Part shown: positions 480 through 42,500 of the stretch, one piece after another
Position numbering within the stretch: the first letter of the stretch is position 1
How the letters are laid out: the number at the start of each line of letters is the position of its first letter
From: a virus
Taxonomy: Duplodnaviria; Caudoviricetes
DNA length: 64,000 nt
IMG/VR virus record: IMGVR_UViG_3300028805_000078
Span: 1-64,000 of that record
Reading direction: 5' to 3' (one strand)
Position numbers and translations under genes: made by a program
Notes under the pieces: model-generated
What the model saw: only the letters and a program-made list of their open reading frames with translations
The model's database searches: none
Told to the model about the DNA's origin: nothing

Positions 480-1017
480 AGATTCTCCTTTCGTTTATAA
501 AACGTTCTTTCTCGAGTTCGTGGTCCGCAGCGGCGAGACCTGTTTGCATTACAAGAGGCACTATTTGTGAAAAAACGAGCGGATAAAACCGGTCGTCTTT
601 CGTGAGCCGTTCATTAAGATATTTTTCCCGAAGCAGTTCTTTTTTCATGCGCTGCCATTTGTCATCCGTAAACCTGTTAGTTTTATCCGGTACACGTTTA
701 ATAAACACCGGCGCACCTGTCTGATTACCGTTATTGTCACAAGGGAACCAACATAAAATTCCATTCGGGAAAAATTTTTTATACTCTTTTGAGTTTACAC
801 GGGTTCTGTAGTTAGACATAAAATCGATCAGCATATCGTTGCCATAAAGTGACGCAACAAGAACACGCCGAAGCGTTTCGTATATCCGTCCTACGCGAAC
901 CACTTGCCACGGAGAATAATTTTGATTCATGCTTTGCGTTTTGGATGCGAGCACATAAGAAGGACGCATCTTGCCTTTGACAGCGTCCTTCTCATCTATA
1001 ATGCCAAGAAAATACAT
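454..1017 (-). CDS. hypothetical protein (187 aa)
   Basis: ORF overlapping the RNAP-1 stop (TAATG); no motif recognised. Confidence 0.65.
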   Translation of the reverse strand: MYFLGIIDEKDAVKGKMRPSYVLASKTQSMNQNYSPWQVVRVGRIYETLRRVLVASLYGNDMLIDFMSNYRTRVNSKEYKKFFPNGILCWFPCDNNGNQTGAPVFIKRVPDKTNRFTDDKWQRMKKELLREKYLNERLTKDDRFYPLVFSQIVPLVMQTGLAAADHELEKERFINERRIYGKRKAKT

Positions 1018-3254
1018 TATGCAGCCTTCCTTTTTCTCAGCTTGCTGACGTTTTTACGCACCTGCAATCTGCGATATTCCTTCTGGCACTCAGGACAACG
1101 GCACTGGCGCGGGTTCAAGCGCTCTACCATTTTGCCGCAGCCTGCACACTCGAAATAATCCGGAAGACGATCTCTGCACCTGTGCTTCTTACTCCATTCA
1201 GGAAGACGTGTTCCGCAATGCTCGCATACTGTACATGTTTTCAAATTATTCTTAAGGCGTTCAAGTGCTATGTCTCCGAAGACGTTCCAGAATTCCTGTT
1301 TATAAGTACGTTTAACAACTCCGTCTCCCGCAAACAAAAATCGAACGATAGGCCCATACGCTTCTTCAAGCGGGGCAACTTCTTCGATTTTCTTCGCAAT
1401 AGATTCGGCAACAAGAAGCGTTTTCATCAGAGTACTTCTTTCGCCAAGATCTGAATTTTTCTGTGCGATAACATTGCAAAGTGTAGCTTCACTACAAGCG
1501 TTAATGAATGTTTCAACGGCCTGTTTGTTGTTTCCGGCATCGCTTTCGTTCATGAGCATCTTATAATTGAACGGAGGAACACCGGCATAACGCAAATCAA
1601 GACGTCCTACGTCATTAAACGCGGCACAGATACGGTTCATTGTAGAGTTGTTTGGAAGAGCACATTTCTCCGGGGGCAAACCGTCTTCACGACGCCCGTT
1701 CTTGCTGAACTGGAACCAATACGGCATTTTGCCTCGCTTGCCACCAATGGATTTCAGTATGCGTTTGTTGATTTCCGGATAGTTTTCATAAGAATCGATC
1801 CGTCCACATTTCGCCGCATCTATGACAGCATTGTTAAATCTTGTTAAACATGCAGCTGCAAATATATCCGGATTTTCTCTGTTCCAGAGTTTTGTCAAAT
1901 TATTCGACACCTGTCCGATGCCGCTGTAATCGTGTGCGCGTTTCAGTCCGTTAAACAATGTCTCGTAAGACAGTTGTTCTTTGTCGGCTTTGTAAGCGTC
2001 GTAGAACAGCGGAACGATGTCCATCTGTTTTATGTTTCGCTTCGCAGCTTCAATGATAACAGATTCGAGCACGCAGTTGAGCTGATCACCATCATTATCG
2101 AATTGCAGTATCCTTGAGATCAGATCGTGGCAGCTAGTATAAATGCCATTTGTTCTGAACCATTTGCGAACTTCGGTATCCTTACTGATTTTTCTGACGG
2201 CGTGCTCCATATACAAAGAGGGAGAACGCAGAACATCCAATTCCTCTTCGTTTTTATAGATTGGAGAGTAGACGTAGCCGTCCGGCAACAAACCTTTCGG
2301 TTCCGTTTCATCGAGGAACCAGAATTCACATGCCGCATAAAGATCCGGGATTGCAAAAAGCCGCTTGTTGTTGCACAGGATCGCGCCACTCTTTGCGTCG
2401 AGCACCATACGTTTCTTGATCGCTTTAAGCACATCGCGCGCATAGCCGTCCCGCAACAACTCGTTATAGATCGCAAGCGCAGCCTGGTAACTTCTGTCGC
2501 TTTGTTCGTCGGCACCGAGCGTACGAAGCATGCAATCTTTGTTTTTGTTCAGGTTTTTGATTTTATTATGCGTTTGATGTGTATATGCTTTGATATCATC
2601 GTCTGAAAAATCTACAAGTGCCTGTGTCATCTGGTAATTGAGTGTCGTATTTTGTATCCATGTTTCTTCGTAGTTCGTACAACACAAATGACAACCGCAT
2701 TCATTGAACTTGCGAACATAATCTTCCCAGGAATCATAATATTTTGCCATTTTGAACTGTGACTCCGTAAGAATGACGCGGATATCTTCATTAATAAGAT
2801 CGTGTTCCTTGCCCCAAAAATCTTTGAGAACAGGTTTGTGATCGTGAACTTTGCAAAATTCAATGTAATCAAACTCTGAAAGAAGCCCCTTGATCCAAGG
2901 CGCACGTATCATTACGTTCGCAGACGGAAGCGTTCCCGGTAATGCCATTCCGCAGCCGTCACAATGATTGATCAAAACGGTATAAATACCTCGTTCAAGG
3001 ACGTAACCGGGTTTAATATAATCCATTACGCCTGTAACCGGCGCTTCGAAGTCCTTGATAACGATACATTTTTCAATAGGAAAATCCCAAATTTCTGTCG
3101 CGGACGAGGGTAAGGAAAGGTACGCGCAATATTTATTAGAATTAATACCACCGCGTTCGTTTATTTCATTCCATGTGAGGCCGCAAGTCATTTGTGGCTC
3201 TATTTTTTTCCACATTTCATCCGACAAAAATTGTGTCTTATCGGTTCTTAATTG
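1017..3254 (-). CDS. YonO-like single-subunit RNA polymerase (RNAP-1), exon 2
   Basis: Motifs CDGCG, IRAPWIKG, LRSP, catalytic FDNDGD (nt 2085-2099), IGQVSN, IDAAKCG and C-terminal CxxC zinc ribbons. The frame is open from the predicted 3' splice site (QLRTDKTQFLSDEMWKK). Confidence 0.85.
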   Translation of the reverse strand, partial: QLRTDKTQFLSDEMWKKIEPQMTCGLTWNEINERGGINSNKYCAYLSLPSSATEIWDFPIEKCIVIKDFEAPVTGVMDYIKPGYVLERGIYTVLINHCDGCGMALPGTLPSANVMIRAPWIKGLLSEFDYIEFCKVHDHKPVLKDFWGKEHDLINEDIRVILTESQFKMAKYYDSWEDYVRKFNECGCHLCCTNYEETWIQNTTLNYQMTQALVDFSDDDIKAYTHQTHNKIKNLNKNKDCMLRTLGADEQSDRSYQAALAIYNELLRDGYARDVLKAIKKRMVLDAKSGAILCNNKRLFAIPDLYAACEFWFLDETEPKGLLPDGYVYSPIYKNEEELDVLRSPSLYMEHAVRKISKDTEVRKWFRTNGIYTSCHDLISRILQFDNDGDQLNCVLESVIIEAAKRNIKQMDIVPLFYDAYKADKEQLSYETLFNGLKRAHDYSGIGQVSNNLTKLWNRENPDIFAAACLTRFNNAVIDAAKCGRIDSYENYPEINKRILKSIGGKRGKMPYWFQFSKNGRREDGLPPEKCALPNNSTMNRICAAFNDVGRLDLRYAGVPPFNYKMLMNESDAGNNKQAVETFINACSEATLCNVIAQKNSDLGERSTLMKTLLVAESIAKKIEEVAPLEEAYGPIVRFLFAGDGVVKRTYKQEFWNVFGDIALERLKNNLKTCTVCEHCGTRLPEWSKKHRCRDRLPDYFECAGCGKMVERLNPRQCRCPECQKEYRRLQVRKNVSKLRKRKAA

Positions 3255-4436
3255 CGTATGATCCCTATTTTCATAGGGTACTGACTATATCTTACTACTA
3301 TAAAAGTAGAAACCCATTTCGAACTGCGTGCCAATAGCAGTCCTACTCTCCCGTTCCGGAGATAGTCGATACAGGCTCTGTCTATGCGACAGTTCCCACG
3401 GGATTAGCATGTGTATGCAAAATTGTATTTAAACAGGTTTCAACGTCTTCGTCGTAACGAATTTCATAAAGTGATATGTTATGATCTTTACAGTAATTTC
3501 TTTTCATTGGATCAGTTACAAGTCTTTGTTGATCTCCAAAGCCTTTTGGTCCAATTTGTTGGTAATGTTGTATTCCCTGAAATTCTATTAGACAACAAAT
3601 GTTATTATCATTATCGAATACCGCAAAATCAAACATTAAACGCGTCTTCCTTCCTTTTGCGCTAACCAAAAAGAGATCGTCTATTTTATAGTTCTTTCTG
3701 TATTTGATATTTTGCTCTGTCAAAAGTTTGGCGATTAACTCTTCTCCTTTTGATTTTACACAGCCGCAGGATACAACGTGCCCACTTAAGAAATCCGTAG
3801 TGGTAACATAAGTTATTCCACCGCAATCGCATTTACACAGCCACAACACCTGTCTGTGTGAACGCATATCTGTCGGTTCTATTGCAACAAGTTTCCCTGA
3901 ACGTTTATTGGAAATATCGACATAGAGTTTTGGTCCCATAACATCTTTCAATATGCAACCACATGATCTTGTCGTTCCATAATTCAGTCTTCCTGTTGTA
4001 ACATAACATATATTTCCACAATCGCAAAGACATTTCCAATATACTTTGTAATCTTTGATATATGCTTTTTCTACAACTGTAAGTTTACTAAAACGTTTAC
4101 CAGTTAAATCCTGTTGTCGTCTCTTTGAAGATAATTGGTTTCTCACGCAGCCACAACTTGTTGTATTACCCGAACGCATTGAGTAACCATCTTCAACGCA
4201 CTTATTGCCGCAATCGCAAATGCAATTCCATAAACTTCGGGAACCAGAACCAGATTTTTTAGTTCCTGCAAAACTTTCAACGAATAATTTTCCGAACTTT
4301 TGTCCGGTTATATCTTTAATTCTATTCATAACATTACACCTCCTTTCATTGATAGTTATTGCATACATTTAGCTTTCCCCGTTAGCCGCATAACGCGACC
4401 CCTTTGGCAAAGGAAAGGGATTTACAGGCCAAGTTG
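3255..4436 (-). mobile_element. group I intron (1182 nt) in the RNAP-1 gene
   Basis: Exon 1 ends in U (GCT GGT|) and the intron ends in G (CATACG|CAA TTA AGA). The IGS TTGGCC pairs with the joined exons GGT|CAA. The S element AAGATATAGTCAG and a P9 hairpin lie near the 3' end. Splicing restores CTASAG|QLRTDK in frame. Confidence 0.85.
3382..4329 (-). CDS. intron-encoded homing endonuclease (Cys-rich repeats plus Vsr/DUF559-like nuclease domain)
   Basis: Three repeats of D.TG..F.KL...W.C.CDCG...G...SCGC, then SKGE..FDFAV..LIEFQGIQHY. Probable start ATG 4329 after AAAGGAGG. Confidence 0.75.
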   Translation of the reverse strand: MNRIKDITGQKFGKLFVESFAGTKKSGSGSRSLWNCICDCGNKCVEDGYSMRSGNTTSCGCVRNQLSSKRRQQDLTGKRFSKLTVVEKAYIKDYKVYWKCLCDCGNICYVTTGRLNYGTTRSCGCILKDVMGPKLYVDISNKRSGKLVAIEPTDMRSHRQVLWLCKCDCGGITYVTTTDFLSGHVVSCGCVKSKGEELIAKLLTEQNIKYRKNYKIDDLFLVSAKGRKTRLMFDFAVFDNDNNICCLIEFQGIQHYQQIGPKGFGDQQRLVTDPMKRNYCKDHNISLYEIRYDEDVETCLNTILHTHANPVGTVA

Positions 4437-4979
4437 ACCAGCACTTGCTGTACAGAAATGAAAATGTTTTTCTACCAAATTTCCGTTTTCATCCTTGACA
4501 GTCATCGAAAATCCGTTTAGTACGATCTGCTCCAAAACATCAAGAGACCGCCACGATACAATGACTTTATCCATACAAACTTCATCCGTTTGTATGCCCA
4601 TTGCACGGGATTGTTCAGACACAAATTCACAAATTTTCTTTGTGATCTTAATGTTATCCCACGATACATAATCAGGCGGTTTACCGTTTTCGAAACACCT
4701 ATAATCGCACACGAGACGGGTGTTTACTTTTCTTGTAATGTTTTTATTGTGTGCAATAAGCTCTTTTAGTTTGTCCGCAGCTTCTTTTTTGACGTTTAAT
4801 ATTCGTTCTTTATGGTTTTCGTCTGCGTTTTTAAGCTTCATCAGTTCCGCGAGTTCCTGTTTGCATTTCAGGATAAGCAGATACTGTTCCGCTTCCTCAT
4901 CCGTGAACAGATCAGACGTAGACAGGCTTACAAGTTTGATCTGATTCAGGAGATAAGTCTTTTTCGAAATGAGCAACAC
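4437..4979 (-). CDS. RNAP-1, exon 1 (spliced product about 926 aa)
   Basis: 181 codons ending ...HFHFCTASAG, in frame with exon 2 after intron removal. Confidence 0.8.
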
Positions 4980-4995
4980 CTTCTTTCGATGTAAA

Positions 4996-5271
4996 TCATG
5001 TTGCTTGTTGTGTTATTTCGTTTGACCAAGGAAAACTGTTTCTGTCTTTGTTCGTCGGCTTTCCTGTCCAAAACCGACAAGTTAAAGACGGTGTCAGCAT
5101 TCTTTCCCAAAAAGAAAAATAGAGCCCGTCATGAATTTCAAAACGGGCTAATAAACTATTGTCATTTATGCGGCGAAGAACGGTGAAATGCTGTGGCCGC
5201 ATGGAACGGTATTCTTCGATCCAGTAGCGGCCGCCTTCGCACATGTCTTCAAAAGCGATCGGTTTTATCAT
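4996..5271 (-). CDS. hypothetical protein, paralog of the ORF ending at 19399
   Basis: Shared pattern I.FE...E..RY..E ... R[FY]W...PT...R....W. Confidence 0.65.
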   Translation of the reverse strand: MIKPIAFEDMCEGGRYWIEEYRSMRPQHFTVLRRINDNSLLARFEIHDGLYFSFWERMLTPSLTCRFWTGKPTNKDRNSFPWSNEITQQAT

Positions 5272-8103: not shown

Positions 8104-8137
8104 TGTTCTCTCTCCTTATTTTGTTTTGTTTTGTTTT

Positions 8138-8456
8138 GTTTCACAATCTGAATAAGTATGTATCCGGAATTCCTGGATCCGCATTCCACCTCATCTTCCA
8201 GTGATCTCAGTCTTTTATAAATTCTCTTCGAGGTAACTTGGTAACTCTCGGCAAGTGCTTTAATGTTCACTCGTATTTTCCAGTTATCAGGATATCGTAA
8301 GTTTCAATTACCAATTTACCTGAGTTTGGGTGAGACCCACTGGAATTCAGGCGCCGTCAGTCTACTCCGGCTGGTGCCCTCTCCTTTCTCCGGACACCTT
8401 CGAACTTCAGATTATACCTTAAAGTAAACCTTTTACAGATTTTAGCATTGTGAAAC
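8138..8456 (-). ncRNA. retron-like msr/msd ncRNA, copy B (downstream of RT)
   Basis: 10-bp terminal inverted repeat GTTTCACAAT/ATTGTGAAAC (8138-8147 and 8447-8456), with a candidate branching G at 8446 and two short msr-like hairpins. Shares blocks with copy A. Internal stems 8196-8209/8331-8345 and 8231-8244/8308-8321. Confidence 0.7.
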
Positions 8457-8567
8457 GGTTATTAGTTATATAGCAGGGGAACGGCGAGTTGGCACTCTCG
8501 CATCTCCTAACGTTTGGCGACGGCTGCCTGTTCCGTCCTCGGTTCCCCTGACTGAATCATTTATGAG

Positions 8568-9689
8568 TTATCCATGCAGTATTCTTTTCGTGATTTCTTT
8601 GAATGACACGTTGTATTTTTCTTCGAGTTTTCGCACCATGTAATCTGTGTATTCCTGTTCGATGCTGCGATAATAGCTATAGATTCCGCACATGTAGTTC
8701 ACATCTTCTTTGTTCCACATGACACCGTTGATCCAGTCTGCAAAGAAGTTATTGACCATTGCCTTGAAGATCTTTTTCTTCGCGTGGCCGACCGTAATAT
8801 TGTGGTCCTTATTTAAATTGAGCCCAAGCATGTAGTTGATGCCGGCGACTGAAGAAAATTTCGTCTTTTCCGGTTTGATACGGAACGGTGCGCCGAAATC
8901 TTCGAGCACTTTATCTATGTAAGAGACCATGCGGTCTTTATCGAATTTAGTATAGGAACTGATCTGAATATCGTCGGCGTAACGCGTATAAACAAACTTC
9001 TTCTTCGATACGAGCTCCTTGAAGATCGTGTAATCGATTGGAATCATCATTGCGTTCGTGAGCATCGGCGATATAACAGTTCCCTGCGGAAGTCCGCCAT
9101 GAAGGAAGCAGATCGAAAGAGACGTCTTCAACGTTTCTTTTTCGTCGTCTGTCCAGAAACAAAACGGATATTGCATCGTGAGCATCTTCAGCAGAAATTC
9201 GGGCGTTATCGAACCGAAGAAGTTGCTGAAGTCTGTTCTCAGACACCAGTTTGAGTTGTTGAGCTTATGCTTCATGACTGCATCCTTTGGACAGCGTCCT
9301 TTTATATACGCAAAAGCTGCTGTATGGTAACTGACTCCGTAGTATTTAAGCAGCAGTTCTTTCAATTCGTTCTGCGCTTTCCTGAGTTCAGCGTCCGGAT
9401 CGTCGATCTTTCTGAACCCGCCGTGCGCTTTCGGAATCTTGAACGATCGGTAATGCGTGGAAAGATCTGACTCAATCAGATTCTTATACTTTTCGTTGAA
9501 GATTTTGAGTCTGCTTGCGCGATACATATACAGACCACTACATCTATGTCTTAAGTCGGTTCTCGTTGTCGTCCAGTTTCCCTTTGGCGAATAGAGATAA
9601 AGATTCTCGATTTCGCCGTTCAGAATATCGTCGATCGATATTCTTTTAACGGGCTGTTTTGCAGGCTTCGTACAATAGAATTCTTGCAT
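8568..9689 (-). CDS. retron-type reverse transcriptase (373 aa)
   Basis: IPKAHGGFRKI, AAFAY..DAVMKH (region-X-like), DFSNFF, GLPQGTVISPMLTN, YTRYADDI and MLGL at the region-Y position. No maturase/endonuclease extension and no DGR-type SQ motif. Confidence 0.88.
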   Translation of the reverse strand: MQEFYCTKPAKQPVKRISIDDILNGEIENLYLYSPKGNWTTTRTDLRHRCSGLYMYRASRLKIFNEKYKNLIESDLSTHYRSFKIPKAHGGFRKIDDPDAELRKAQNELKELLLKYYGVSYHTAAFAYIKGRCPKDAVMKHKLNNSNWCLRTDFSNFFGSITPEFLLKMLTMQYPFCFWTDDEKETLKTSLSICFLHGGLPQGTVISPMLTNAMMIPIDYTIFKELVSKKKFVYTRYADDIQISSYTKFDKDRMVSYIDKVLEDFGAPFRIKPEKTKFSSVAGINYMLGLNLNKDHNITVGHAKKKIFKAMVNNFFADWINGVMWNKEDVNYMCGIYSYYRSIEQEYTDYMVRKLEEKYNVSFKEITKRILHG

Positions 9690-9706
9690 CTTTTTTCCTT
9701 TCTGTC

Positions 9707-10001
9707 TTCACAATCTGAATAAGTAGACATGCCTCTTCTGCGGCGGCCACAGCCTCCAGACTCACTCTTCAGCTCATCCTTTCAGGTCATTACAGGTGTT
9801 GTTCCACCCAGATGACCGGTTAGATTGGGCTGCCGCGTGGCAAAAGTAGTCTCGTACTTTATGTCGTCTGGCTTGCTGGTAAACCTTTGAGGTGTTGCTG
9901 GCCGATCTTCCCGTCGGACTCTTTCCCTCCGTTGTCTCGCCACCTTCGATCTTCAGCTTTTAACTTGAAGAGCAGTTAATTGGACTGCTGAGCATTGTGA
10001 A
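9707..10001 (-). ncRNA. retron-like msr/msd ncRNA, copy A (upstream of RT)
   Basis: Terminal inverted repeat TTCACAAT/ATTGTGAA (9707-9714 and 9994-10001), candidate branching G at 9993, two msr-like hairpins; ends just before the RT RBS. Confidence 0.75.
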
Positions 10002-10280
10002 AACTGTTATCCTTTTGTTCTTTATTTAACCCATCTGAAAACTCGCTTGGTTGCTAGAGTTTTCCTCTACTTTTCCCGGCAAGCGGGAAAAGGTATGCTG
10101 TTTGTACCGAACTTCGGGTAATACCACAAAGTAAAGCTTTCGCTTTAAGCATGGGTTTTGTTAGGCTTCGGCTTCGTATAAACCACTCCGACGAAGCTTT
10201 CTTAGACCTTCCGCCTCGTTTGTATCGCCCTGACGGCCCGGGCTTTTATTCAATACGCGTATTTCAGCGTTATGAATCGT

Positions 10281-10961
10281 TTAGAACGCGTCTATCGTAA
10301 AGTTGAACGCGTCTATAAAGATCGCCTTTTTAATTTCCGAAGTTTTGATAAAATTCACGAAGTTTGCAACACCTGAAGCTACGATAATTCGAACGGTCGG
10401 ACACACCGACAGCGTGATGTTGCATGCGCTGACGGGCGCGGCTTCCTTCGCTTCCTCGTGCGTGAAGTTCATCGATTTCAGGAAGTTTGAAATCATTTCC
10501 TGATCAGACCAGTCTGCCGCATAATGCTGTGCATCCGTAAGACCCATCCTGAAATCGAACATCGCCCTGATCGTATTGTTATAACGATTCTCTGTGGCTA
10601 TCTTGCGCCGCAGATCGATATTGTCTACACACAAGAATACATAACCGCTCAGACGCTCGTTAGTCCAGCCTTCCGGGAATAGACGGATGTCTATTTCGGC
10701 GGCAGGATTTATCCTGAGAATGTTTTCCTTTACGGCGTCCACCTTTGCCTTACCGAGATCTTCAGAAGTGAACATCTGGTTGGCGATATTGTGCGGTTCT
10801 ACCCTGTCGAAGTCATACAGACTGATCTTCGTAAATCCGAAGCGGGCGAGATTTTCCGCAAGCGTCGAACCGATCGCGCCGCAGCCGATAATGTGAATCC
10901 GTTCCCGCACGTTAGACGGGTCAAGAAACTCGCGGCTTTTACTCAAGTCGATTACAGTCAT
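10281..10961 (-). CDS. ThiF/E1-like ubiquitin-activating enzyme
   Basis: IIGCGAIGS nucleotide-binding loop, DFDRVEPHNIANQ, GKAKV, CVDN, and a candidate catalytic Cys in PVSAC. Confidence 0.9.
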   Translation of the reverse strand: MTVIDLSKSREFLDPSNVRERIHIIGCGAIGSTLAENLARFGFTKISLYDFDRVEPHNIANQMFTSEDLGKAKVDAVKENILRINPAAEIDIRLFPEGWTNERLSGYVFLCVDNIDLRRKIATENRYNNTIRAMFDFRMGLTDAQHYAADWSDQEMISNFLKSMNFTHEEAKEAAPVSACNITLSVCPTVRIIVASGVANFVNFIKTSEIKKAIFIDAFNFTIDAF

Positions 10962-10974
10962 TCACATCTCTCCT

Positions 10975-11799
10975 TTACAAGTCTTCTCCGCCGTACTTTT
11001 CCATAAATTCATCGTAGTAATCCGTGTAACTGTTGTATTTTCTCGCCTTTGCGCGCATATCTTTTACAGTCAGACCCGAAGCAGCGTTATTATACTGCGG
11101 AACTTTGTATTCCTGCTGATATGCGACGGGAGACTGATAATCCTTGTATCCGCTGTACTGCGAATAAGTATAAGTCTTCTGCCGCACGTTCTTCATTGAA
11201 TCGAAGAAATCTGCACAGGATTTCGGAAACAGCACCTGTACATCACCGTTTTCGTAGTGAACATTTGCCGCGAGATCGAAGATTTCACAGGTGTATTTCA
11301 TCTCCTTGTTGATAATCATGAAGATGAAGAAATCGTCACCCGACAGATCTTTCAGTTTCTCATCCCTGTCACTGATATCCGTCTCGGACGGAGACGGCGC
11401 AAAGTTGACGTGACTGTGTCCGTGGAAGCGCTTTGCGTTGAACACTTCGTCAGACAGGCTGTCATACCATTTACCGAGTTCTTTTTCGTCTGTCGTAACG
11501 GTCACGCCGGTCACTTCCTGCGGATAAACGATTATGTCGTAAACTTCGAAGCCGTCATCTGTGCGCTTCGCAAGACCGTACCAGCCAACTTCGCCGCTGA
11601 ACCCATCGATCAGCGCACGCGTTTTATAGTAGGCAGTTTCAGTCAAAACGAGCTTCGTCTTCTGTTTGGCAACGGCTTTCAGCTCCGCCTTATAATCGAC
11701 GGAGCCGTTCACACTCTTCAGTTTCGACAGTTTTTCACGAAATTCCTTTACAGCAAGCTCTATAATTTCTGCTGTCAGCTTAATCGGCTTTGCCATCAT
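10975..11799 (-). CDS. JAB/MPN+ metallopeptidase (deconjugase-like)
   Basis: EVGW plus the JAMM motif HGHSHVNFAPSPSETD. Confidence 0.85.
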   Translation of the reverse strand: MMAKPIKLTAEIIELAVKEFREKLSKLKSVNGSVDYKAELKAVAKQKTKLVLTETAYYKTRALIDGFSGEVGWYGLAKRTDDGFEVYDIIVYPQEVTGVTVTTDEKELGKWYDSLSDEVFNAKRFHGHSHVNFAPSPSETDISDRDEKLKDLSGDDFFIFMIINKEMKYTCEIFDLAANVHYENGDVQVLFPKSCADFFDSMKNVRQKTYTYSQYSGYKDYQSPVAYQQEYKVPQYNNAASGLTVKDMRAKARKYNSYTDYYDEFMEKYGGEDL

Positions 11800-13187
11800 T
11801 CTGCCTCCTTCTCTTTCTTGAGCAGTTCAAGCGCTTCTTTCGGCGTAACGGCTTTTCCTTCGTCCGTAATAATACATTTCTTTGGTGTATTAAACAGTGT
11901 GCTCAAGAAACGCTGTACGGTTACACTTTCGCAGATATTCATGCTGCTCACCGAAGCCATGCATAAATCGAGCGCGCCTACGACATCGAATTCGCGCATT
12001 TTGTCGTTAATAAGCGGCAGATAGTTGCCGAGACACGCGAAATTATCAAGGTGCGGATTCGGGATATAGTTATCATACTTCGGACCAAAGTAGAAGTGCT
12101 CTTCCGTATTGACGCTGTTTGCGCCAAGCTTATAATAGCCGCATACGCGAACTTTATACTTTGCTTTCTGACTGAACAGCGCGTCAAGAAGGAGCTTTCT
12201 GTTTTCTTTGTCTGCGAAACATTCAAGCGAGCCGTAAACTCTTTCATTCAGGAAAGAACTCTCATTACGTATGTATTCATCATACGTATCCGCATCAACC
12301 TGCGTAAGATATCCTTTGCAGACAGCCTTCAGGATTCCGCGATCTACGCCGATGATCTCGACGTTACGGTTTGAGAGGAGGTAATCACTGAGCTCGCCTT
12401 CGTTAATCGCAGTTGTTCCGGCGATCAGACCGTTCAGACGGATATTTTCTTCGCTGAGTTTCCTGCACCAGTCCATATATGTCTTGGCCGCTGCGTTTAC
12501 GGAGTTCTGTGCATTCTGTACGCACACACGCTGACTCTGTATAATATTGTCGCGCATGCACTCGCGTATCGTCTTTACGAAGCCGCGGATCATCGTTTCT
12601 TCGTATTCGGGCTTGGCAAAGTATTCTGCGATATACGTGTTGATCCTGTTTACGGAACCGTTGGAGACAGTGAAAGCTTTCAGGAATTCAGTCTCTTCCG
12701 GCGTCGTTCTCGGACTGTCTTTAAACAGATGCGGCGCATACCGGGGAATAAGCAACGTAAGCAGATGATACATACGGATTGATTCCTGATTCGTAAACAC
12801 GACAAAATGCTTTGTCTCTTCGTTTACGAAGAATCTGGCCGTACGTATAAAGCTGTCCGTAAAGACCTGAAGGTCTTTCTTTTCAGTCCATTTGTCTTTG
12901 TTAGACGTTTGGGCAAGGATCTCATCGATCTTATCGAAACACGTCGCCATGAACAAAACTGAAAGATCTTGCGAGTCCAGAAGAGAAGCAGTATAATCGA
13001 GCGGATCCCTTGAAGCGATACGTGTAATTATTGCATAGAAATCTTCTTCTGCGCGATCTTTCAGCAACATTCGCAGCACGATACCCATGCTGCAGTCAAA
13101 TACGTCGTTGAGCACATGAATCTTTGGAAATGCGCTTTCCTTAATGCTGTCATATACAGCAGGAAGCGTTATATCTTGTGTAAACAT
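11796..13187 (-). CDS. putative E2-like conjugating enzyme with a long N-terminal/coiled-coil extension
   Basis: C-terminal PNPHLDNFACLGN resembles the prokaryotic E2 active-site pattern (HPH/N...C-L-G); lies between the Ubl and JAB genes. Confidence 0.6.
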   Translation of the reverse strand: MFTQDITLPAVYDSIKESAFPKIHVLNDVFDCSMGIVLRMLLKDRAEEDFYAIITRIASRDPLDYTASLLDSQDLSVLFMATCFDKIDEILAQTSNKDKWTEKKDLQVFTDSFIRTARFFVNEETKHFVVFTNQESIRMYHLLTLLIPRYAPHLFKDSPRTTPEETEFLKAFTVSNGSVNRINTYIAEYFAKPEYEETMIRGFVKTIRECMRDNIIQSQRVCVQNAQNSVNAAAKTYMDWCRKLSEENIRLNGLIAGTTAINEGELSDYLLSNRNVEIIGVDRGILKAVCKGYLTQVDADTYDEYIRNESSFLNERVYGSLECFADKENRKLLLDALFSQKAKYKVRVCGYYKLGANSVNTEEHFYFGPKYDNYIPNPHLDNFACLGNYLPLINDKMREFDVVGALDLCMASVSSMNICESVTVQRFLSTLFNTPKKCIITDEGKAVTPKEALELLKKEKEAE

Positions 13188-13332
13188 GCTGCACTCCTTA
13201 TTATTTTATTTCAGATAAATACTGAAGACCGAAAAATGAAAGCTCTTTTTTTAATTTTCTTTTTTCAGTCTTCCGTATTCATATGAAAAAATTAGGGGTG
13301 CCACATTGTTATGTGACACCCCCGTAAACGGA

Positions 13333-13941
13333 TTACACGCGGGTGATCATCGTTTCGATCGCGGCCTTCGCAGCGAAGGTCTTCTCAAGCGCGGCTTCGA
13401 AGCCCTCTTCCAGCTTGCTGAGCTTGAAAGCGGCGGGACCCAGCTTGTCCATGAGATGCTCTTCGCGCTTCTCAATGGGCAGCTGCACAGTCACGGTAGC
13501 GGGATCCGCCTTGTTGTCGCCGAAGGAAATACCGAAAGCAGTCACACTGCCCTGGCCCTTCGTAGTGCCGACACGGAAGATCTCCGTCTTCTTGCCGTCC
13601 TCGTCTTCCTCGGTTAGCACAAGTGCCTTCGGGGCGTACTTCTCGAGAAGAGCGATCTGCTCGTAGGTAAAGGCGCTCTTGATGACAGCCGCGTCACCGA
13701 CCACCACGATAGAAGCGGCGTTGTCGGTCTTGGTGTTCACGTTCAGCACGGCAGATTCGGTCACGCCGAAATCGGCGAAGGTCTTGTCGAGCTCGTTGGC
13801 ACCGATAACAGTGCCGGACAGCGTGATGATGCCGCGGTCACACTCGATACCGGCCTGCTCAAAAGCGGCACGAAGGGAGGTGTTTTCGTCAAGGATGCTT
13901 TCCTTACGAGTCATCTGATTGCGAATGAAGATTTTTACCAT
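13333..13941 (-). CDS. putative ubiquitin-like (beta-grasp) domain protein with C-terminal extension
   Basis: First ~75 aa follow a Ubl pattern (VKIFI..TSLRAAFE..ITLSGTVI..ELDKTFADFGV..AVLNV.TKTDNA). Strong RBS and GC3-rich codons like the capsid gene. Confidence 0.65.
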   Translation of the reverse strand: MVKIFIRNQMTRKESILDENTSLRAAFEQAGIECDRGIITLSGTVIGANELDKTFADFGVTESAVLNVNTKTDNAASIVVVGDAAVIKSAFTYEQIALLEKYAPKALVLTEEDEDGKKTEIFRVGTTKGQGSVTAFGISFGDNKADPATVTVQLPIEKREEHLMDKLGPAAFKLSKLEEGFEAALEKTFAAKAAIETMITRV

Positions 13942-20949: not shown

Positions 20950-21763
20950 TGGTTTTCCTCCTTCGTTGCGCCTTAGGTGATTTCCCCGGCTTGGGACGGG
21001 GATTGCGCATTAACCCCGCTTAGCGGGGCCCCTCTGCTTGCGTTAAGCTGCCATAGGAACGTCCTGCGGCGCAGTTTCCTGCTTCGCAAGTTCCGCCCTA
21101 ATTTCTTCTGGAGTCTTATCCTCCCAGGAAAACTTAACGGTTCCGTTAGAAGTAACAGTATAAGACATGACAATACCTCCGTTTATCGTCTTGTAGACGT
21201 AATTATGGTGGACGCTCAATTTGCTCTGGCGCTGAACGTCCGAAGCGCCGTAGATTGCATGTTGCTTTCACCCTGCCTCCATGCCAGGCAGGAACCACAA
21301 ACGGAGTGAAACCCGAAGTGCGGAAGCGAAACTCGATAACCACAATGTGGTTATTTTATTTCATAGGTGCACCCCGGCCGCCAGGCCGGGATACCTGAAG
21401 AGTAGTTTGTTGAAATAGAAACGGAATAATCGTAGTGATTCAGATGTGTATACGGTGAGCATCAGATGCGTGGACCTGATGCTTACACGAAGCAGGCCAA
21501 TCGGGAGGACCTGATGCTTATACGCAATCTGAAGCGAAGTGAGCCGAAGGCGAGCGGAGCGTCGAGCGAAGCGAAAAATCCCCCCGCCCGGAAAATAATG
21601 CCCCCCCGCATTCGGCTCAAAGAGCCGTCCTACGATGACCCGCGTGGATCACAATAGGACAGCTCTCTGTCCGCCGCAGGCTGAGCATATAATTAGCTTA
21701 GCACTGACTAAAGCCCCACAACCGAAGTCATGGGGCTGAGGTCAGTGTTATGCCGGAATCAGG

Positions 21764-24271
21764 TTACCAGGGCATTTCCTCATCTTCGTCGTCGTCGTCC
21801 TCGCAATCGTCAAGGTCATCAAGGTCGATAACGGCGCTGAGTGCCAGAGAGCCAAAGCGCTCGCTGAGCGCGTCGACGATGTAATCATTCAGACAATCCC
21901 AGAGGACACGCTTGTAAGTTTCAAGCGCCGGCCCTTCGTTCATCGTGTAGATGTAATATACAATCAGGTTGTAGACATGCTGCACGGTGCAGCCGTACTT
22001 TTCGGCGTAAAGTGCCATCAGCTTTTCGATCATCTGCTTTCTCAGATCGATAATCGTAGTGTATTCGAGATTGCGGCTCGCAGCCATCTCGCGGAGCTCG
22101 TCACTCGTGGCAAACACCAGCTGATCAAACTGACCGCCGTTTACGTACTTCGTGTTGCCGCTTTCGTCCTTTACGATCTTGCCGTTCTCGTCGCGGAGAG
22201 GTTCGCTGCGTTTGAACACCTTTGTGTTCTGTACGGACGGGAGCTGAGCGTCATACATCAGGTTCTCCCAGAAGAATTCTCCGTTGATTTTGGCACCAAA
22301 TTCAGCCATCTTCTTGGTATGTTCGTTGATGAAGATTGAGTACTGTTCAAGCGGGTGATTCGCCTTTTGCTCATACTTGGTTTCATCAACCACGTCCTTT
22401 ACGGGCTTGCCAATGTTCTTTGCAATTTTGGCAAACTTGATAAAGGTGGGCATCTTCTTGGTCATCTTCTTGACAGCTTTGGGCATAGGCAGATCGGTAT
22501 CGCCGTGCTTTTCAATGTCTACGGTGATTTCTACCTTTTTCTGCCAATATTCCACGCAAGCCTTTGCATCCGCAACGCGGGCTTCGTCTCCGTCAACGTA
22601 AGCGTCGTACAGATCGGAGTAAGCACAACTCAGCTTGTTGCTGACTGAGCCAATCTGAGAAGGTTTTATGAGGTTTGTAAAGTAAGCCATCCTTATATTC
22701 TTCGCCGTTGTCTTGTCGAAGGTGACCTTCTTTGCGTGTCCCGCAGGGGTGTTGGGCATTTGGGTGGGATTACCCATCTCATCGAGGGTTTCTGAGATGA
22801 TTTTGTGGAAATCTTCGTCCGTTACGACGAAGACTTTATCTCCGTCGTAGTCTGCTCCGCCGAGGCGACGAAGCGAATCGTCGTAGTTGTTGAGCACCAT
22901 TACGTTTTTGTCCGTAATGCCCATTTCTATGTGCTTATTGTTGAGAACAACCCAACTGGCCTCGCTGGTGTGGGGGTATCGGATCATTATCGTTTTGCCT
23001 TCGGGCAACGCTGCGCAGCAGCACTCACCTGCTTTGAGGCCGTTGCCTCCGAAAAGGTCGATTGGATCACAAGTGATTGCGTAGAATTTGCCTGCGTTTG
23101 GCAGTGCACCTCCGCGCAGCATCATCTTCTGTTTGCGATAGGCCACCTGGCCCGTCTTCTTGACGTAACCGTCAAGGGCAAGCTGCGGGTAGATCATAAC
23201 CGCTTCCCGCATCGCGGCGGGAAGAAGCTTTACAAAGTTGTTGAGGCAAGCAAGAGAGTCAAGGTACGAGCAGCCGAGCCGCTTGAACTTCTCAATGTTC
23301 TCTTCAGAGAACGCGAGGGTTTGAAGCGGCTGGTAGGTCATGTGTTTCAAGCTGTGCTTGTTCATGCGGACGGCTACTGAGATACCGGCATCTTTGACAG
23401 CGGAAATCTGCTGTTCTTCGGTTTTGGCGAGGCTGATAAACTTCTCGCCAGATTCGGAGAGGAGAATCTGCGTCTCGGAGATCTTATGGATTTTGCCCCA
23501 GGGCGTCTTGTACTCGGGGTCGAATCCGAGTGCGTCAAGGAAGAGCCTTTTGTTGACGGGGATCGCCAACACCTTAGTGGGACGGAGGCTTGCTGCCTCG
23601 GACGGGAGGTTGTTGTCTCCATCGAAGACGAAGCAGGCGGAATCGGACGCGTTGTGTCCGTTGCGATACACATCCTTCATGATGTGCATCTTTTCGAAGT
23701 TGATGTTAAAGTTGGGATACACTTCCTCGATGGGCGCGGAAGTGGAGAAGAACAGACCCAACCTGGTGAAGAATTTGTTGGGTTCCATGGCAGTGCCGGA
23801 GATCGTGAAGCCGTGGCGGAAATGTTTGGAAAACATCTCCAAGTGTTCAGCTTTTACCCAAATGGACTGGGCTTTCTTCGCGCCGGAGGCGGTGGCGCAA
23901 AGAGGGAGGTAGAGATGGTTGTTCAGGGTTATGCCGTTGTGGCAGAGGTTCCACCAGCTCGTTCTGATGGATTTGTTCTCTTTGTTCTTTTCGTCCTTTT
24001 CGTTGATGACGGAATTTACAAAAATGAATTCTTCTTCGGGGTTGAAGCCCTTGCTGATGGCGTAGCGGAATGCGGCATTGCTGCCGTGCGGCTCAACGGT
24101 GGTGGTGCCGTTGATATCGTAGTTTACGATGTTGAAGATGTGCTTGGTGGCGATGTTGTTGTTGATGACTTGACAAAGAAGTGAATTAGTGGTAGAATGT
24201 GACATGGTGGTTTCCTCCTTATTGATGTTGTTGTTGATGATGGTGGTGTTGGTAGCATTAAGATTCTTCAT
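21764..24271 (-). CDS. second single-subunit two-barrel RNA polymerase (RNAP-2)
   Basis: CATASGAK (cf. CTASAGQL), IRYPH, LGGADYDGD (DYDGD at nt 22838-22852), IGSVSN, VDIEKHG, collinear with the RNAP-1 motifs. Alternative start at 24205. Confidence 0.75.
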   Translation of the reverse strand: MKNLNATNTTIINNNINKEETTMSHSTTNSLLCQVINNNIATKHIFNIVNYDINGTTTVEPHGSNAAFRYAISKGFNPEEEFIFVNSVINEKDEKNKENKSIRTSWWNLCHNGITLNNHLYLPLCATASGAKKAQSIWVKAEHLEMFSKHFRHGFTISGTAMEPNKFFTRLGLFFSTSAPIEEVYPNFNINFEKMHIMKDVYRNGHNASDSACFVFDGDNNLPSEAASLRPTKVLAIPVNKRLFLDALGFDPEYKTPWGKIHKISETQILLSESGEKFISLAKTEEQQISAVKDAGISVAVRMNKHSLKHMTYQPLQTLAFSEENIEKFKRLGCSYLDSLACLNNFVKLLPAAMREAVMIYPQLALDGYVKKTGQVAYRKQKMMLRGGALPNAGKFYAITCDPIDLFGGNGLKAGECCCAALPEGKTIMIRYPHTSEASWVVLNNKHIEMGITDKNVMVLNNYDDSLRRLGGADYDGDKVFVVTDEDFHKIISETLDEMGNPTQMPNTPAGHAKKVTFDKTTAKNIRMAYFTNLIKPSQIGSVSNKLSCAYSDLYDAYVDGDEARVADAKACVEYWQKKVEITVDIEKHGDTDLPMPKAVKKMTKKMPTFIKFAKIAKNIGKPVKDVVDETKYEQKANHPLEQYSIFINEHTKKMAEFGAKINGEFFWENLMYDAQLPSVQNTKVFKRSEPLRDENGKIVKDESGNTKYVNGGQFDQLVFATSDELREMAASRNLEYTTIIDLRKQMIEKLMALYAEKYGCTVQHVYNLIVYYIYTMNEGPALETYKRVLWDCLNDYIVDALSERFGSLALSAVIDLDDLDDCEDDDDEDEEMPW

Positions 24272-29790: not shown

Positions 29791-30239
29791 CGAAATAGAT
29801 CTCCATAAAGATGGTGAAGCAAGATGGTGAAGCGATGACACCCTAAAAACACTCGTGGAGCACTCTACACGTTAAACGGATGCTTTATGATACCCTGAGA
29901 AGTTATAGCCGGGATGATTACGGTGAAAGCGGAGGGATATAACGGTTCTCGATTTACCAGAGGTCATCTTAGCCCACAGATAAAGAGCTCTTGTTTGGCG
30001 GCGAAAGAAAATCGAATAGTCGGAATGGAGACTTTAAACCCATTTCCATTAGTCGGGGCGGAGACTTTAAATACCGTACACGTTTCGGGCTGATCGAAAG
30101 ATCCGGGTCCACCTTTCGGCGGGGAAATCCCCCGCCACTTTTGATATCTCGCGCTCAATGCGCTTGATATAAATATATCTGCTAAGCTTTGGATATGTCT
30201 CCTACCGTAGACAAAGCGAATGCAAGTTAGGAGTGCAAC

Positions 30240-39597: not shown

Positions 39598-42500
39598 ATG
39601 GCCGATAACATTACAATGAATTTTGAATTGACCGGCGTTACTAAAGCTATTAGCGATGTAGAGAAATTAGTTCAGGTATCTGGAGAATTAGCTGCTCCAA
39701 TGAGAGAAGCAAAGACTGCAATAGGCGGCGTAAGTGAAGAGATTAGTGCAATAAAAGAGGGATTTGATTTAAGTTCTTTGAGTTCTGGCGCTGCCAGTAT
39801 GCCAGATATGTTGCAAAACTCTATTAACGCTATGGCTCAAGCGTTATCTCAGAGTGCTAAACAAATGCAGCAAGCTATGAAAGTATCCGGAGGGCAATTA
39901 ACCGAACAGCTCCAAATCGCGCAAACATATCTTGCTGTAAATTCAAGAATTTTAAATAACAATATTCAGACTGCCCGTGCTTTATTGCATGATGTTTCGC
40001 CTACACAAAGGAGCGCCTTTAACAGTTCTTATACAACAGCGGCACAAGATGCGGCAAATGTCTTCAGGAATTTCGCAAACACTAACGGTAGCGCTATGTC
40101 TGATAGATCTTTGGAATTGATGCTGCGAAATAATAAAATCGTATCTTCTGGTGTTTCGAGGATGGCGAAAAATACCGGGGCAAAAGAAGATTTGATTTAT
40201 AAAAGTTTGGTTCAAACTGCTGCAGCGCCTTTTATGCGTCGGGAAGTAATTAAAGACATCCAAAGATTAAGCGGTGGCCTTATTGATCCTACAAAAATAC
40301 AGGCACCAAAAGGAAACTTTTATAGCAGGTTGCCGGAACAGTTCCGAGGTTTATCTACCGTTATTACTCCTTCAACTGAAGCGGACATTTCAAAGTTTGT
40401 TCGTGGTAACGGTATCAAAGCATATAAAACTATCGAAGGCAATAAGCTTTACAATGAATTGTTAAATGAGATAACCGGCAATGCCCATCGAAAAGGAAAC
40501 ATAACGCTTGAACGAGCGTTGAATGCAGCCGGAATCCAGACGCGTTTTAAAGGCGGTTCTCAAGTTGGTTTGCCAACACGAATCGACGAAAGAACGTTGG
40601 CTTATGTTGGTGGCTTTTTGCATAGGTCATTGAATAATTATCTCGAAGGAGCTCCTTCGTATCTTGCTAACATGTCGCATTTATCCGACGATGATGCTGA
40701 ACGTCTTGGTGCGAAGAACGGAACTGTTGCAAGAGAAGTTGATTCCGCCTTTAGGATTCTTGCTAAAGCGGGTGTAAAGGATCTGTTGTACACGCCGAAC
40801 GGTGCGAGGCTGCCAAGCGTTGGAAATCCTAAGAATATAAAGTACATTTACAGCAAGCATTTGGCGCCACAAGGGATAAGACCTGATGAATTTGTTATAC
40901 CTTCAGTTACATATGCAGATTTTGGTAAAGGTGTTTTGCCTACAGCAAGAGACGGATTGATTCGGTATAGTGATAGTACGAATGGCAAGACTACGAATAA
41001 AATGATTTCCAGAAACATTCTGACGGATTTGCTTGGCATGCAAGGTAATCTCACATATGGCAATGGCAGTAAAACTAATATGGGTATTCCAAAGTTAATT
41101 TACGTAGACTTTGGTGAAGATGCTTATGCGAAAAAAGATAATGGTGAATTGGATTTTGATGAAACAGGAAACGTTAAATATAATGATGCTACGAAGAAAA
41201 TAATAACTGACATGTTTGATAAATCTAAACATAGTAAAACTATAAGAGGTTCGAAATATAGTTACTCTGTTATAAAGGGTGGACCGAACGGAGACACGAA
41301 TTATGTTCCTATTTCTACTAAACATGGTTCCGTAATCTTGGCTGCTGAGGGCGATTACGACGATCCTTATTCTTATGTTAGTATGTCAAAACGCAGTCTT
41401 GATACATTTGGCGTAAATGTTTTTGACGCATTTGAAAATATGGAAGAAGTAGTAGGTACGAACAAACAGCGTGCTAAAAAGATGGACACGAGAAATAGGT
41501 CTATTACTCCCTCTATTCCTTTTGCAGAAATGCAAGGATGGAGTATTCCTGGCCGTTCGAAGACTGCAATTTTGTCAATGAAAGACTTGTTTAAACTAAA
41601 GGATGGCGATAGTGATGCTGTAGGTATTGAAGGTACGGGCATCATATCTCCTGGTTATATTCCGGATGCTGCAGTTATTAGAATGCCGGGCGTTAAAGGA
41701 TCGTTGTTGCCTGTAAATCTAAAAAATATGGTGCAAAAAGTTTATGGAAATGTTGAAAGCCTATATGCACCAACTGTTACAGCTTCTGACGACATGAAGA
41801 AAGCATGGCATACAGGTGGCATTGATGCGGTTGTTAAACAATTTGGAGATAGTGTACTGTCTAATGGTCAATTTGTTGATGTTCTTAAGATGGATATGTT
41901 GTTGAGCGATGACTTGCTTAAGAGTTCTTTTTATACCAAAGGAATAAAAGATGGTGCAACGCATGAACAATTAGTTGATAGATTTTATAAAGTACTTGAG
42001 TTTATGGATTTATCTGGCAAAAACAATCCGCTTCAAGGAATAAGAGCTGTGCAGACTGCTGCAGGTTTTCAATCTCAGAAAGATGTGCTCAGTAATCAGG
42101 TTGCGCAGTATCTTAATATGGACTTTGATACTGCGAGCATGAACCAAAGCAGGTGGACCGAACATATTAACAAATTGAAATATAATGATCAATATGCATA
42201 CGATCAACTATTTAAACACGAGATAGACAAACAAGAAGATGTAATGGCGGCTATGCTCAATCCGGATAGTCAGATAGCAAGGAAAAGAAGAGAAGCTATT
42301 GCAAAAGCAGAAGAAGACAGGATGTACGGACGGCTATTTGGTGAGAACGAATTTATGATGGGCATGGCGGCTTTGAATCCGTTTGATTTTGTTAAAGTGT
42401 TGGCAGAAAGAAACGGCAAAGGGCAAAAGGGGTTAAATGTTGTCAATAAAGAATGGTTTGATAAACTGGGTCTGACTGGTAAAGGTGGAAAAGCTGGTAT

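Follow-up and report, generated by a model that had tools for sequence, protein, structure and literature searches.

How is a phage equipped with what looks like a complete ubiquitin-like protein-tagging pathway, and is that pathway on its own? The question is raised by a 64,000-nucleotide stretch (the window) of a sheep-gut phage, i.e. positions 1 to 64,000 of the IMG/VR virus record IMGVR_UViG_3300028805_000078 (116,061 bases, 95% complete), in which terminase, portal, major head and tail proteins are present. An earlier note, made from the sequence alone, had proposed that four adjacent co-oriented genes encode a Ubl, an E2-like protein, a JAB peptidase and an E1, that the Ubl domain ends at about KTDNA without a GG, and that JAB cleavage would have to expose this non-canonical terminus and release a second domain. 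The open reading frames and the motifs (checked by translation, Table 1) are confirmed, and the interpretation is supported. The conservation of the motifs among relatives, described below, shows that none of this is chance.

Table 1. Positions of the features in the window and of the motifs within them.
Coordinates	Strand	Feature	Details
13717..13941	-	Predicted ubiquitin-like beta-grasp domain (tag), residues 1-75 of a 202-aa protein (13941..13333)	Ends K-T-D-N-A75, the inferred mature C-terminus; KTDNA followed by ASIV at 13731..13705
13333..13716	-	Fused partner domain (CTD), residues 76-202, plus stop codon	Alpha/beta domain with a long C-terminal helix (secondary structure from the model), of no known family
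13294..13323	-	Intrinsic-terminator-like hairpin between the Ubl-CTD gene and the E2-like gene	13-bp stem plus a T run; a consensus match only
11796..13187	-	E2-like protein, 463 aa	N-terminal alpha/beta domain (1-190), long helix (193-260), UBC/RWD-like C-terminal domain (262-463, nt 11799-12404); IPNPHLDNFACLG at 12065..12027; Pro376-Asn377 and Cys385 at 12033-12062
10975..11799	-	JAMM/MPN+ metallopeptidase (JAB), 274 aa	Start overlaps the E2-like stop codon by 4 nt; E70 and H128-S-H130-x7-S138-x2-D141; HSHVNFAPSPSETD at 11418..11377
10281..10961	-	Minimal E1, a single ThiF-type adenylation domain, 226 aa	GCGxxGS, D113 and Cys180 (PVSAC, 10436..10422)
9704..10004	-	Retron-type ncRNA cassette 1	a1 GTTTTCACAAT (10004..9994), followed directly by G9993; a2 ATTGTGAAGAC (9714..9704), 15 nt upstream of the RT start
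8568..9689	-	Retron-type reverse transcriptase (RT), 373 aa	
8137..8458	-	Second msr-msd-like cassette, downstream of the RT	Same a1 end and same 3' block as cassette 1

Residues 1-75 of the first protein are predicted to fold as a ubiquitin/SUMO-like beta-grasp, with residues 1-76 of the model aligning to residues 23-98 of Smt3 and the K-x-D-N-A tail aligning with the end of SUMO. This junction is conserved in 69 non-redundant Ubl sequences, and it is the relatives that indicate where the mature tag ends. Of 42 non-redundant separate Ubl ORFs, most stop directly after K-x-D-N-A, whereas others add 1-3 residues. In two related loci (L017 and L021) di-Ubl genes repeat head-to-tail after that Ala and end in ...GA-C or ...CA-W, while a third locus (L001) has a 15-residue insert right after the D-N-A. 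Ala75 is therefore the inferred mature C-terminus. The partner domain that follows it is a separate gene in most relatives (stand-alone forms include the protein P0019, BFVD A0A8S5PSV1 and A0A8S5LJC8, and those of L017 and L021) and is present in all full loci, making it a sixth conserved component. It had no Pfam match, a PDB profile search and the Atlas gave nothing usable, and it has no conserved lysine. Pfam, NCBIfam, PADLOC and PHROGs gave no family for the Ubl-CTD protein as a whole. The suggestion in the earlier note of a capsid-like codon bias has mild support: the Ubl gene has the highest GC3 (0.74) of 29 genes tested, and the highest capsid-referenced CAI but one among genes outside the reference set.

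E70, H128, H130, S138 and D141 of the JAB protein are invariant, with exact spacing, in 7 JAB sequences at 28-33% identity, and its profile matches RPN11 (E 1.3e-5) with the motif aligned. A PADLOC JAB model also matches it (E 6.6e-5), although Pfam Prok-JAB remains below its cutoff (14.9 against 25 bits). The E1 matches Pfam ThiF (PF00899) at E 1.8e-24 (86.7 bits against a cutoff of 28.1), is 56-67% identical across loci with GCGxxGS, Asp113 and Cys180 invariant, and its profile matches UBA5 (8e-14), as well as UBA1, MccB, MoeB, Cap2, ThiF and BubCD. Since it is a minimal ThiF/MoeB-like single domain, and since its best NCBIfam matches are ThiF models, it could be argued that the set is a sulfur-carrier system of the ThiS/MoaD-ThiF type, making a thiocarboxylate for cofactor or nucleoside thiolation. 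However, those matches are far below their cutoffs (86 against 159 bits) and cover only residues 20-92, no ThiG, MoaE or sulfurtransferase partner lies nearby, and the tag ends in Ala, is made as a precursor or a poly-tag, and comes with a JAMM peptidase and an E2-like protein, all of which makes this reading very unlikely.

Whether the 463-aa protein is the transfer enzyme is less clear. It belongs to a large family (at least 2109 cluster representatives at 50% identity) without a Pfam model, and no sequence link to a known family was found: Pfam, NCBIfam, PADLOC and PHROGs gave none, scanning all 78 family members against Pfam gave only scattered noise, and its profile against PDB sequences found only coiled-coil noise. 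Foldseek with the whole model found nothing in the PDB at E <= 0.001, the wide VIA list was dominated by the long helix, and a search for shorter stand-alone relatives of residues 262-463 found nothing. The structural matches that exist are modest, and are to non-catalytic RWD domains. It is thus conceivable that the protein is not an E2 but a scaffold or a target, and that the E1 (with MccB among its PDB relatives) acts with the tag alone, by direct transfer or by making an acyl-adenylate or peptidyl-nucleotide product as MccB does. On the other hand, the C-terminal domain looks UBC/RWD-like and carries P376-N377-P-H379-L-x4-C385-L-G387, in which N377, H379, C385 and G387 are invariant in 78 diverse sequences and the Asn-x7-Cys spacing appears to be that of canonical UBC enzymes such as UbcH5. 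Moreover, the gene is translationally coupled to that of JAB, and the penultimate residue of the tag is not always Asn (N, G, S and C all occur), which does not fit MccB-type chemistry. A complex prediction of E1, Ubl(1-75) and E2-like(262-463) gave weak support, with an ipSAE of 0.50 against a best control of 0.00; this mark was reached by 58 of 80 solved complexes and 2 of 110 mismatched pairs, but a score of 0.60 or under was seen in only 7 of those 80 and in both false passes. The runs agreed in at least 95% of contacts, and partner pLDDT was at least 89. Taken together, the E2 assignment is probable but not proven, while the alternative without an E2 seems unlikely.

The cassette does not stand alone, as searches seeded with the E1 and with the RT each recovered the same block: tag, partner, E2-like, JAB, E1, then a retron-type RT with its a1/a2-flanked RNA. 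The RT is best matched by NCBIfam retron_St85_RT (E 5e-56, 190 bits, below the cutoff of 235) and PADLOC RT_II-A (E 3e-54), and the region that seems to correspond to the retron VTG motif reads LG; membership of the retron clade is not settled. The layout of the RNA, with a G right after a1, recurs with different, complementary arms in most of 81 loci. All 80 E1-seeded viral loci show the same gene order through to the RT wherever the contig reaches that far, and of 67 RT-seeded loci with enough upstream DNA, 65 have all six parts, while the other 2 run off the contig end.

All loci come from one broad group of related phages, and part of this co-occurrence could be inherited gene order; the Ubl cassette and the retron could then be two independent accessory systems that merely sit side by side. 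In some loci 1-5.8 kb of other genes lie between E1 and RT, and in the window 277 nt of extra spacer precede the ncRNA. RNA-library contigs ending at 10018 and 10020 hint, weakly, at a separate transcript start just upstream of the ncRNA, although such contigs cover the region without being able to show transcription, strand or level, and both runs come from one sample. Against this, the pairing holds although the E2-like proteins have diverged to 19-30% identity, the flanking genes are far less conserved (no family in more than 31 of 86 loci), and in some loci, such as L002, the RT starts within about 10 nt of the E1 stop. In addition, E1 and RT are absent together from a complete close relative (G001, terminase 64% identical), which also means that the module is accessory and not core. 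The comparison with G001 gave no clean insertion boundary, because the whole early region has diverged. Independence of the two systems is therefore considered unlikely. Skipping-rope RNA was not found in six related loci and is thus not a conserved part of the module. An annotated phage collection gave only a 49-base DNA match and one weak protein hit, and GTDB genomes a single hit, on a 100-kb contig of an Acutalibacteraceae MAG, which is a host lead at best.

Following these results, the explanation held with reasonable confidence is that of a phage-borne ubiquitin-like conjugation pathway forming one conserved accessory module with a retron-type element. The individual steps are inferred in the absence of biochemistry. 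The JAMM peptidase would cut after Ala75, releasing the tag and the partner domain, after which the E1 would adenylate the Ala75 carboxylate and may pass the tag through its Cys180. The tag would then move to Cys385 of the E2-like protein, whose N-terminal domain and long helix would pick a target, and be joined to a target amine; the peptidase may also reverse the tagging. The retron RT and its RT-DNA are inferred to act with this pathway, as its trigger or regulator or as its substrate complex. The purpose is most likely conflict, against host defences or rival phages, although the biological role is unknown and no target is known.

Parts of this scheme have precedents. Like the Bil (BilABCD) antiphage systems, the locus has separate genes for a beta-grasp Ubl, an E2 (here E2-like), a JAB/JAMM peptidase and an E1, without an E3, the E2 being thought to choose the target in Bil (summarised in bioRxiv 10.1101/2024.11.21.623953). 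Bil, however, is encoded by the host and acts against phages, its Ubl ends in Gly, it has no partner domain and no RT, and the E2-like protein here is of a different family; nor does the 226-aa E1 with its single ThiF domain fit the defining architecture of Bil as given in that work. JAB cleavage of a Ubl fusion precursor, exactly at the Ubl C-terminus, has been shown for Type I Bub (6E.1/DUF6527) operons (bioRxiv 10.1101/2024.11.21.623953), but there the fusion partner is the E2 itself, JAB is fused to the E1, catalysis runs through oxyesters and a DUF6527 serine protease is present, whereas here the four are separate genes, Cys residues are invariant, the terminus is Ala, the fused partner is an unknown domain, and no DUF6527 match was found in the five proteins scanned. 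In Type II CBASS a C-terminal Gly or Ala is used for Cap2 conjugation (PMC10097602), and E1, E2 and JAB activities are tied to a nucleotide-polymerising enzyme (a CD-NTase there, an RT here), which is an analogy only. Cap2 is an E2-E1 fusion in a host-encoded system in which the cyclase itself is conjugated and there is no beta-grasp tag, while PADLOC E1-E2 models match only residues 13-93 of the E1 here and no cyclase model matched any of the five proteins. The PRTRC (ParB-related, ThiF-related) cassette of plasmids and ICEs is not matched either (PRTRC_ThiF, TIGR03736, 35.7 bits against a cutoff of 144.75; no other PRTRC model matched, and no ParB is present). The tandem and fused tags recall eukaryotic polyubiquitin and ubiquitin-fusion precursors, but the terminus is D-N-A and not G-G, the peptidase is a JAMM enzyme encoded in the same operon, and there is no detectable sequence relationship. 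As for retrons, the RNA layout and the presence of specific accessory genes beside the RT agree with the 13 types of Mestre et al. 2020 (PMC7736814), but the words ubiquitin, ThiF and JAB do not occur in the main text of that classification, and the element here is phage-borne, has a second ncRNA cassette and has a five-protein conjugation set as its accessory part.

E1/E2/JAB/Ubl operons in prokaryotes are so far described as host defences (Bil, Bub, CBASS), whereas here the virus carries the set, and the module is common in large gut and rumen phages (237 E1 and 250 RT relatives in IMG/VR). The fused, split and tandem forms of the tag define the inferred processing site without any experiment. 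It is possible, though tentative, that the six parts form a phage-borne kind of retron in which ubiquitin-like conjugation is the effector or read-out arm, the RT and its RT-DNA gating, or being the platform for, attachment of an Ala-terminated ubiquitin-fold tag to host or rival-phage proteins; in the boldest version the tag would be attached to the RT/RT-DNA complex itself. The pairing with a retron-type RT connects two fields that have not been connected in the literature that could be searched, and it may point to a new way for reverse-transcribed DNA to control, or be controlled by, protein tagging.

The window belongs to a 116,061-base virus record that is 95% complete and carries terminase, portal, major head and tail genes. 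The earlier note had claimed that four adjacent, co-oriented genes on this DNA encode a ubiquitin-like (Ubl) protein, an E2-like protein, a JAB peptidase and an E1, and all four ORFs were found exactly where it placed them, while the motifs that it had read in the four proteins were all confirmed by translation. The E2-like stop codon and the JAB start overlap by 4 nt, whereas JAB and E1 are 13 nt apart, and the first gene is followed by a terminator-like hairpin with a 13-bp stem. Elsewhere in the window there are two PHROG 8308 polymerase-like genes (one of them apparently interrupted by a homing-endonuclease gene), a very long ORF in the tail region, a Twister-P5 ribozyme match (55.3 bits) and a DUF3800-XI RNA match (63.8 bits), the latter just after a tRNA-Thr, between the portal gene and the following late (head-region) gene.

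Coordinates of the features in the window and in related loci (L001, L017, L021, L066 and L069)
Feature	Location	Coordinates	Strand	Length
Ubl-CTD gene (Ubl fused to partner domain)	window	13941..13333	-	202 aa
Terminator-like hairpin	window	13323..13294		
E2-like gene	window	13187..11796	-	463 aa
JAB gene	window	11799..10975	-	274 aa
E1 gene	window	10961..10281	-	226 aa
Ends of RNA-library contigs	window	10018 and 10020		
a1 arm	window	10004..9994		
G following a1	window	9993		
a2 arm	window	9714..9704		
Skipping-rope RNA	window	8477-8547	-	
Second msr-msd-like cassette	window	8458..8137	-	
PHROG 8308 polymerase-like genes	window	1017-5012 and 21764-24271	-	
Homing-endonuclease gene	window	3382-4368		
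Twister-P5 ribozyme match	window	20985-21038	-	
DUF3800-XI RNA match	window	30086-30133	+	
ORF in the tail region	window	39598-56049	+	5483 aa
Optional gene between E1 and RT	L001	8844-9497		
Tandem di-Ubl gene	L017	5981-6448		
Tandem di-Ubl gene	L021	5885-6352		
Second, shorter E2-like paralogue	L066 and L069	about 3760-4415		about 220 aa of match

In an AlphaFold2 model of the first protein, built on 13 homologues (mean pLDDT 88), residues 1-75 form a beta-grasp, with which a Foldseek search agreed, and in these alignments the end of SUMO falls at about residue 75. The terminus of the tag was then inferred from comparative data. Among 69 non-redundant relatives, 27 are fusions like that of the window, in which K-x-D-N-A (or G) is followed by the second domain, whereas the other 42 are separate Ubl genes, most of which stop directly after ...K-A-D-N-A, while the rest add only 1-3 residues. 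In the related loci L017 and L021 the gene is a polyubiquitin-like tandem di-Ubl, in which each repeat ends K-x-D-x-A, the next repeat begins at once, and the protein ends with one extra residue (C or W); in these loci the JAB is about 370 aa long and families of small repeated genes lie between E1 and RT. The related locus L001 has a 15-residue insert right after D-N-A. Ala75 is therefore inferred to be the mature C-terminus, which a peptidase would have to expose in the fused, tandem and extended forms. Both points have published precedent, since a JAB domain cuts the BubAB Ubl-E2 precursor exactly at the Ubl C-terminus, and CBASS cyclases conjugated by Cap2 end in Gly or Ala.

In the same model, residues 76-202 form an alpha/beta domain with a 40-residue C-terminal helix. 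In most relatives this partner domain is a separate gene placed just upstream of the Ubl gene, and it is a stand-alone protein in P0019 (one of the relatives) as well as in two BFVD phages, which also carry a separate 82-90-aa Ubl. It is present in every full locus, so it is a conserved sixth component. It has no Pfam, PDB-sequence or Atlas match, and no invariant lysine.

Seven JAB sequences at 28-33% identity keep E70, H128, H130, S138 and D141 with the exact JAMM spacing (H-x-H-x7-S-x2-D), and the JAB profile matches the deubiquitinase RPN11 at E 1.3e-5 with these residues aligned. The E1 passes Pfam ThiF (86.7 bits, cutoff 28.1) and is the most conserved part of the block (56-67% identity), keeping the GCGxxGS loop, Asp113 and Cys180 in P-V/M-S-A-C. 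Its nearest solved relatives are UBA5, UBA1, MccB, TcdA, MoeB, Cap2, ThiF and BubCD. It is a single adenylation domain, which differs from the three-part Bil E1 and from the fused Cap2 and BubCD enzymes.

For the E2-like protein, a profile of seven sequences found 2109 cluster representatives at 50% identity with E <= 0.001 (1003 with E <= 1e-30), and even so none of 78 members matches a Pfam family. The model (78 sequences, pLDDT 92.6) has an N-terminal alpha/beta domain, a 68-residue helix and a C-terminal domain (residues 262-463). The ESM Atlas adds RWD clusters (TM 0.44) and a viral cluster partly annotated Prok-E2_D at 0.87, which are leads rather than proof. In the motif I-P-N377-P-H-L-x4-C385-L-G, Asn and Cys are eight residues apart, which appears to correspond to the HPN...C loop of canonical E2s, and N377, H379, C385 and G387 are invariant in 78 sequences. 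A complex prediction of E1, Ubl(1-75) and residues 262-463 gave weak support (0.50 against 0.00 for the best control), although by the calibration of the method a pass at this level is more often wrong than right unless the guess was already likely. Taken together, it is likely, but not certain, that this protein is an E2. In two related loci (L066 and L069) a second, shorter E2-like paralogue lies upstream of the partner-domain gene.

The cassette does not stand alone, as downstream of the E1 lie a 591-nt spacer and a retron-type RT, which matches NCBIfam retron St85 at E 5e-56 (though below the cutoff of that family) and PADLOC RT_II-A at 3e-54. Co-occurrence was tested from several starting points. 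All viral, metagenome and MAG loci found with the E2-like protein keep the order Ubl/CTD, E2-like, JAB, E1, RT, as far as each contig reaches. Seeding with the E1 gave 237 viral contigs, of which the best 80 all show the same order, ending in the RT wherever the contig reaches that far, while seeding independently with the RT gave 250 contigs; of the 67 loci with enough upstream DNA, 65 hold all six parts and the other two run off the contig end. By contrast, no flanking gene family occurs in more than 31 of 86 loci. An optional gene of unknown family (median 268 aa, no Pfam match) is inserted between E1 and RT in 29 of 86 related loci, L001 among them, but is lacking in the window. A complete relative with terminal repeats and a terminase 64% identical lacks both E1 and RT, although the early region has diverged too far to show a clean boundary. 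In the literature searched, no paper was found that pairs a retron or RT with ThiF, JAB, E1-like or ubiquitin components, and the main text of the 13-type retron classification does not contain the words ubiquitin, ThiF or JAB.

The RNA between E1 and RT has retron hallmarks. An a1 arm of 8-13 nt ends ...AAT or ...AAC and is followed directly by G, and about 300 nt later a complementary a2 arm lies 15-45 nt before the RT start; the arm sequences differ between loci but stay complementary. In the window, a second msr-msd-like cassette follows the RT, with the same a1 end (GTTTCACAAT followed by G) and the same 3' block (CTTATTCAGATTGTGAA) as the cassette upstream, so that the RT is flanked by two template-RNA candidates. 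Between the RT stop and this second cassette lies an Rfam skipping-rope RNA (49.7 bits, cutoff 36.7), which is absent from six related loci and is therefore not a fixed part of the module.

Contigs from two metatranscriptome runs of one sheep-gut sample (not the likely source sample) cover the region at 100% identity, and two of these contigs, one with an adapter attached, end about 15 nt upstream of the a1 arm, which may be a 5' end of the ncRNA/RT transcript. Since such libraries can hold DNA, and contigs show neither strand nor level, this is only a hint. The Ubl-CTD gene has the highest GC3 of 29 genes and a capsid-like codon score, which, together with the hairpin after it, fits a highly expressed tag.

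The observation of the four-gene set is confirmed, and its reading in the earlier note as a phage-encoded ubiquitin-like conjugation cassette is supported. The cassette is best seen as the protein-tagging half (the tagging itself being inferred) of a six-part phage module whose other half appears to be a retron, with a role that is unknown and probably related to conflict.
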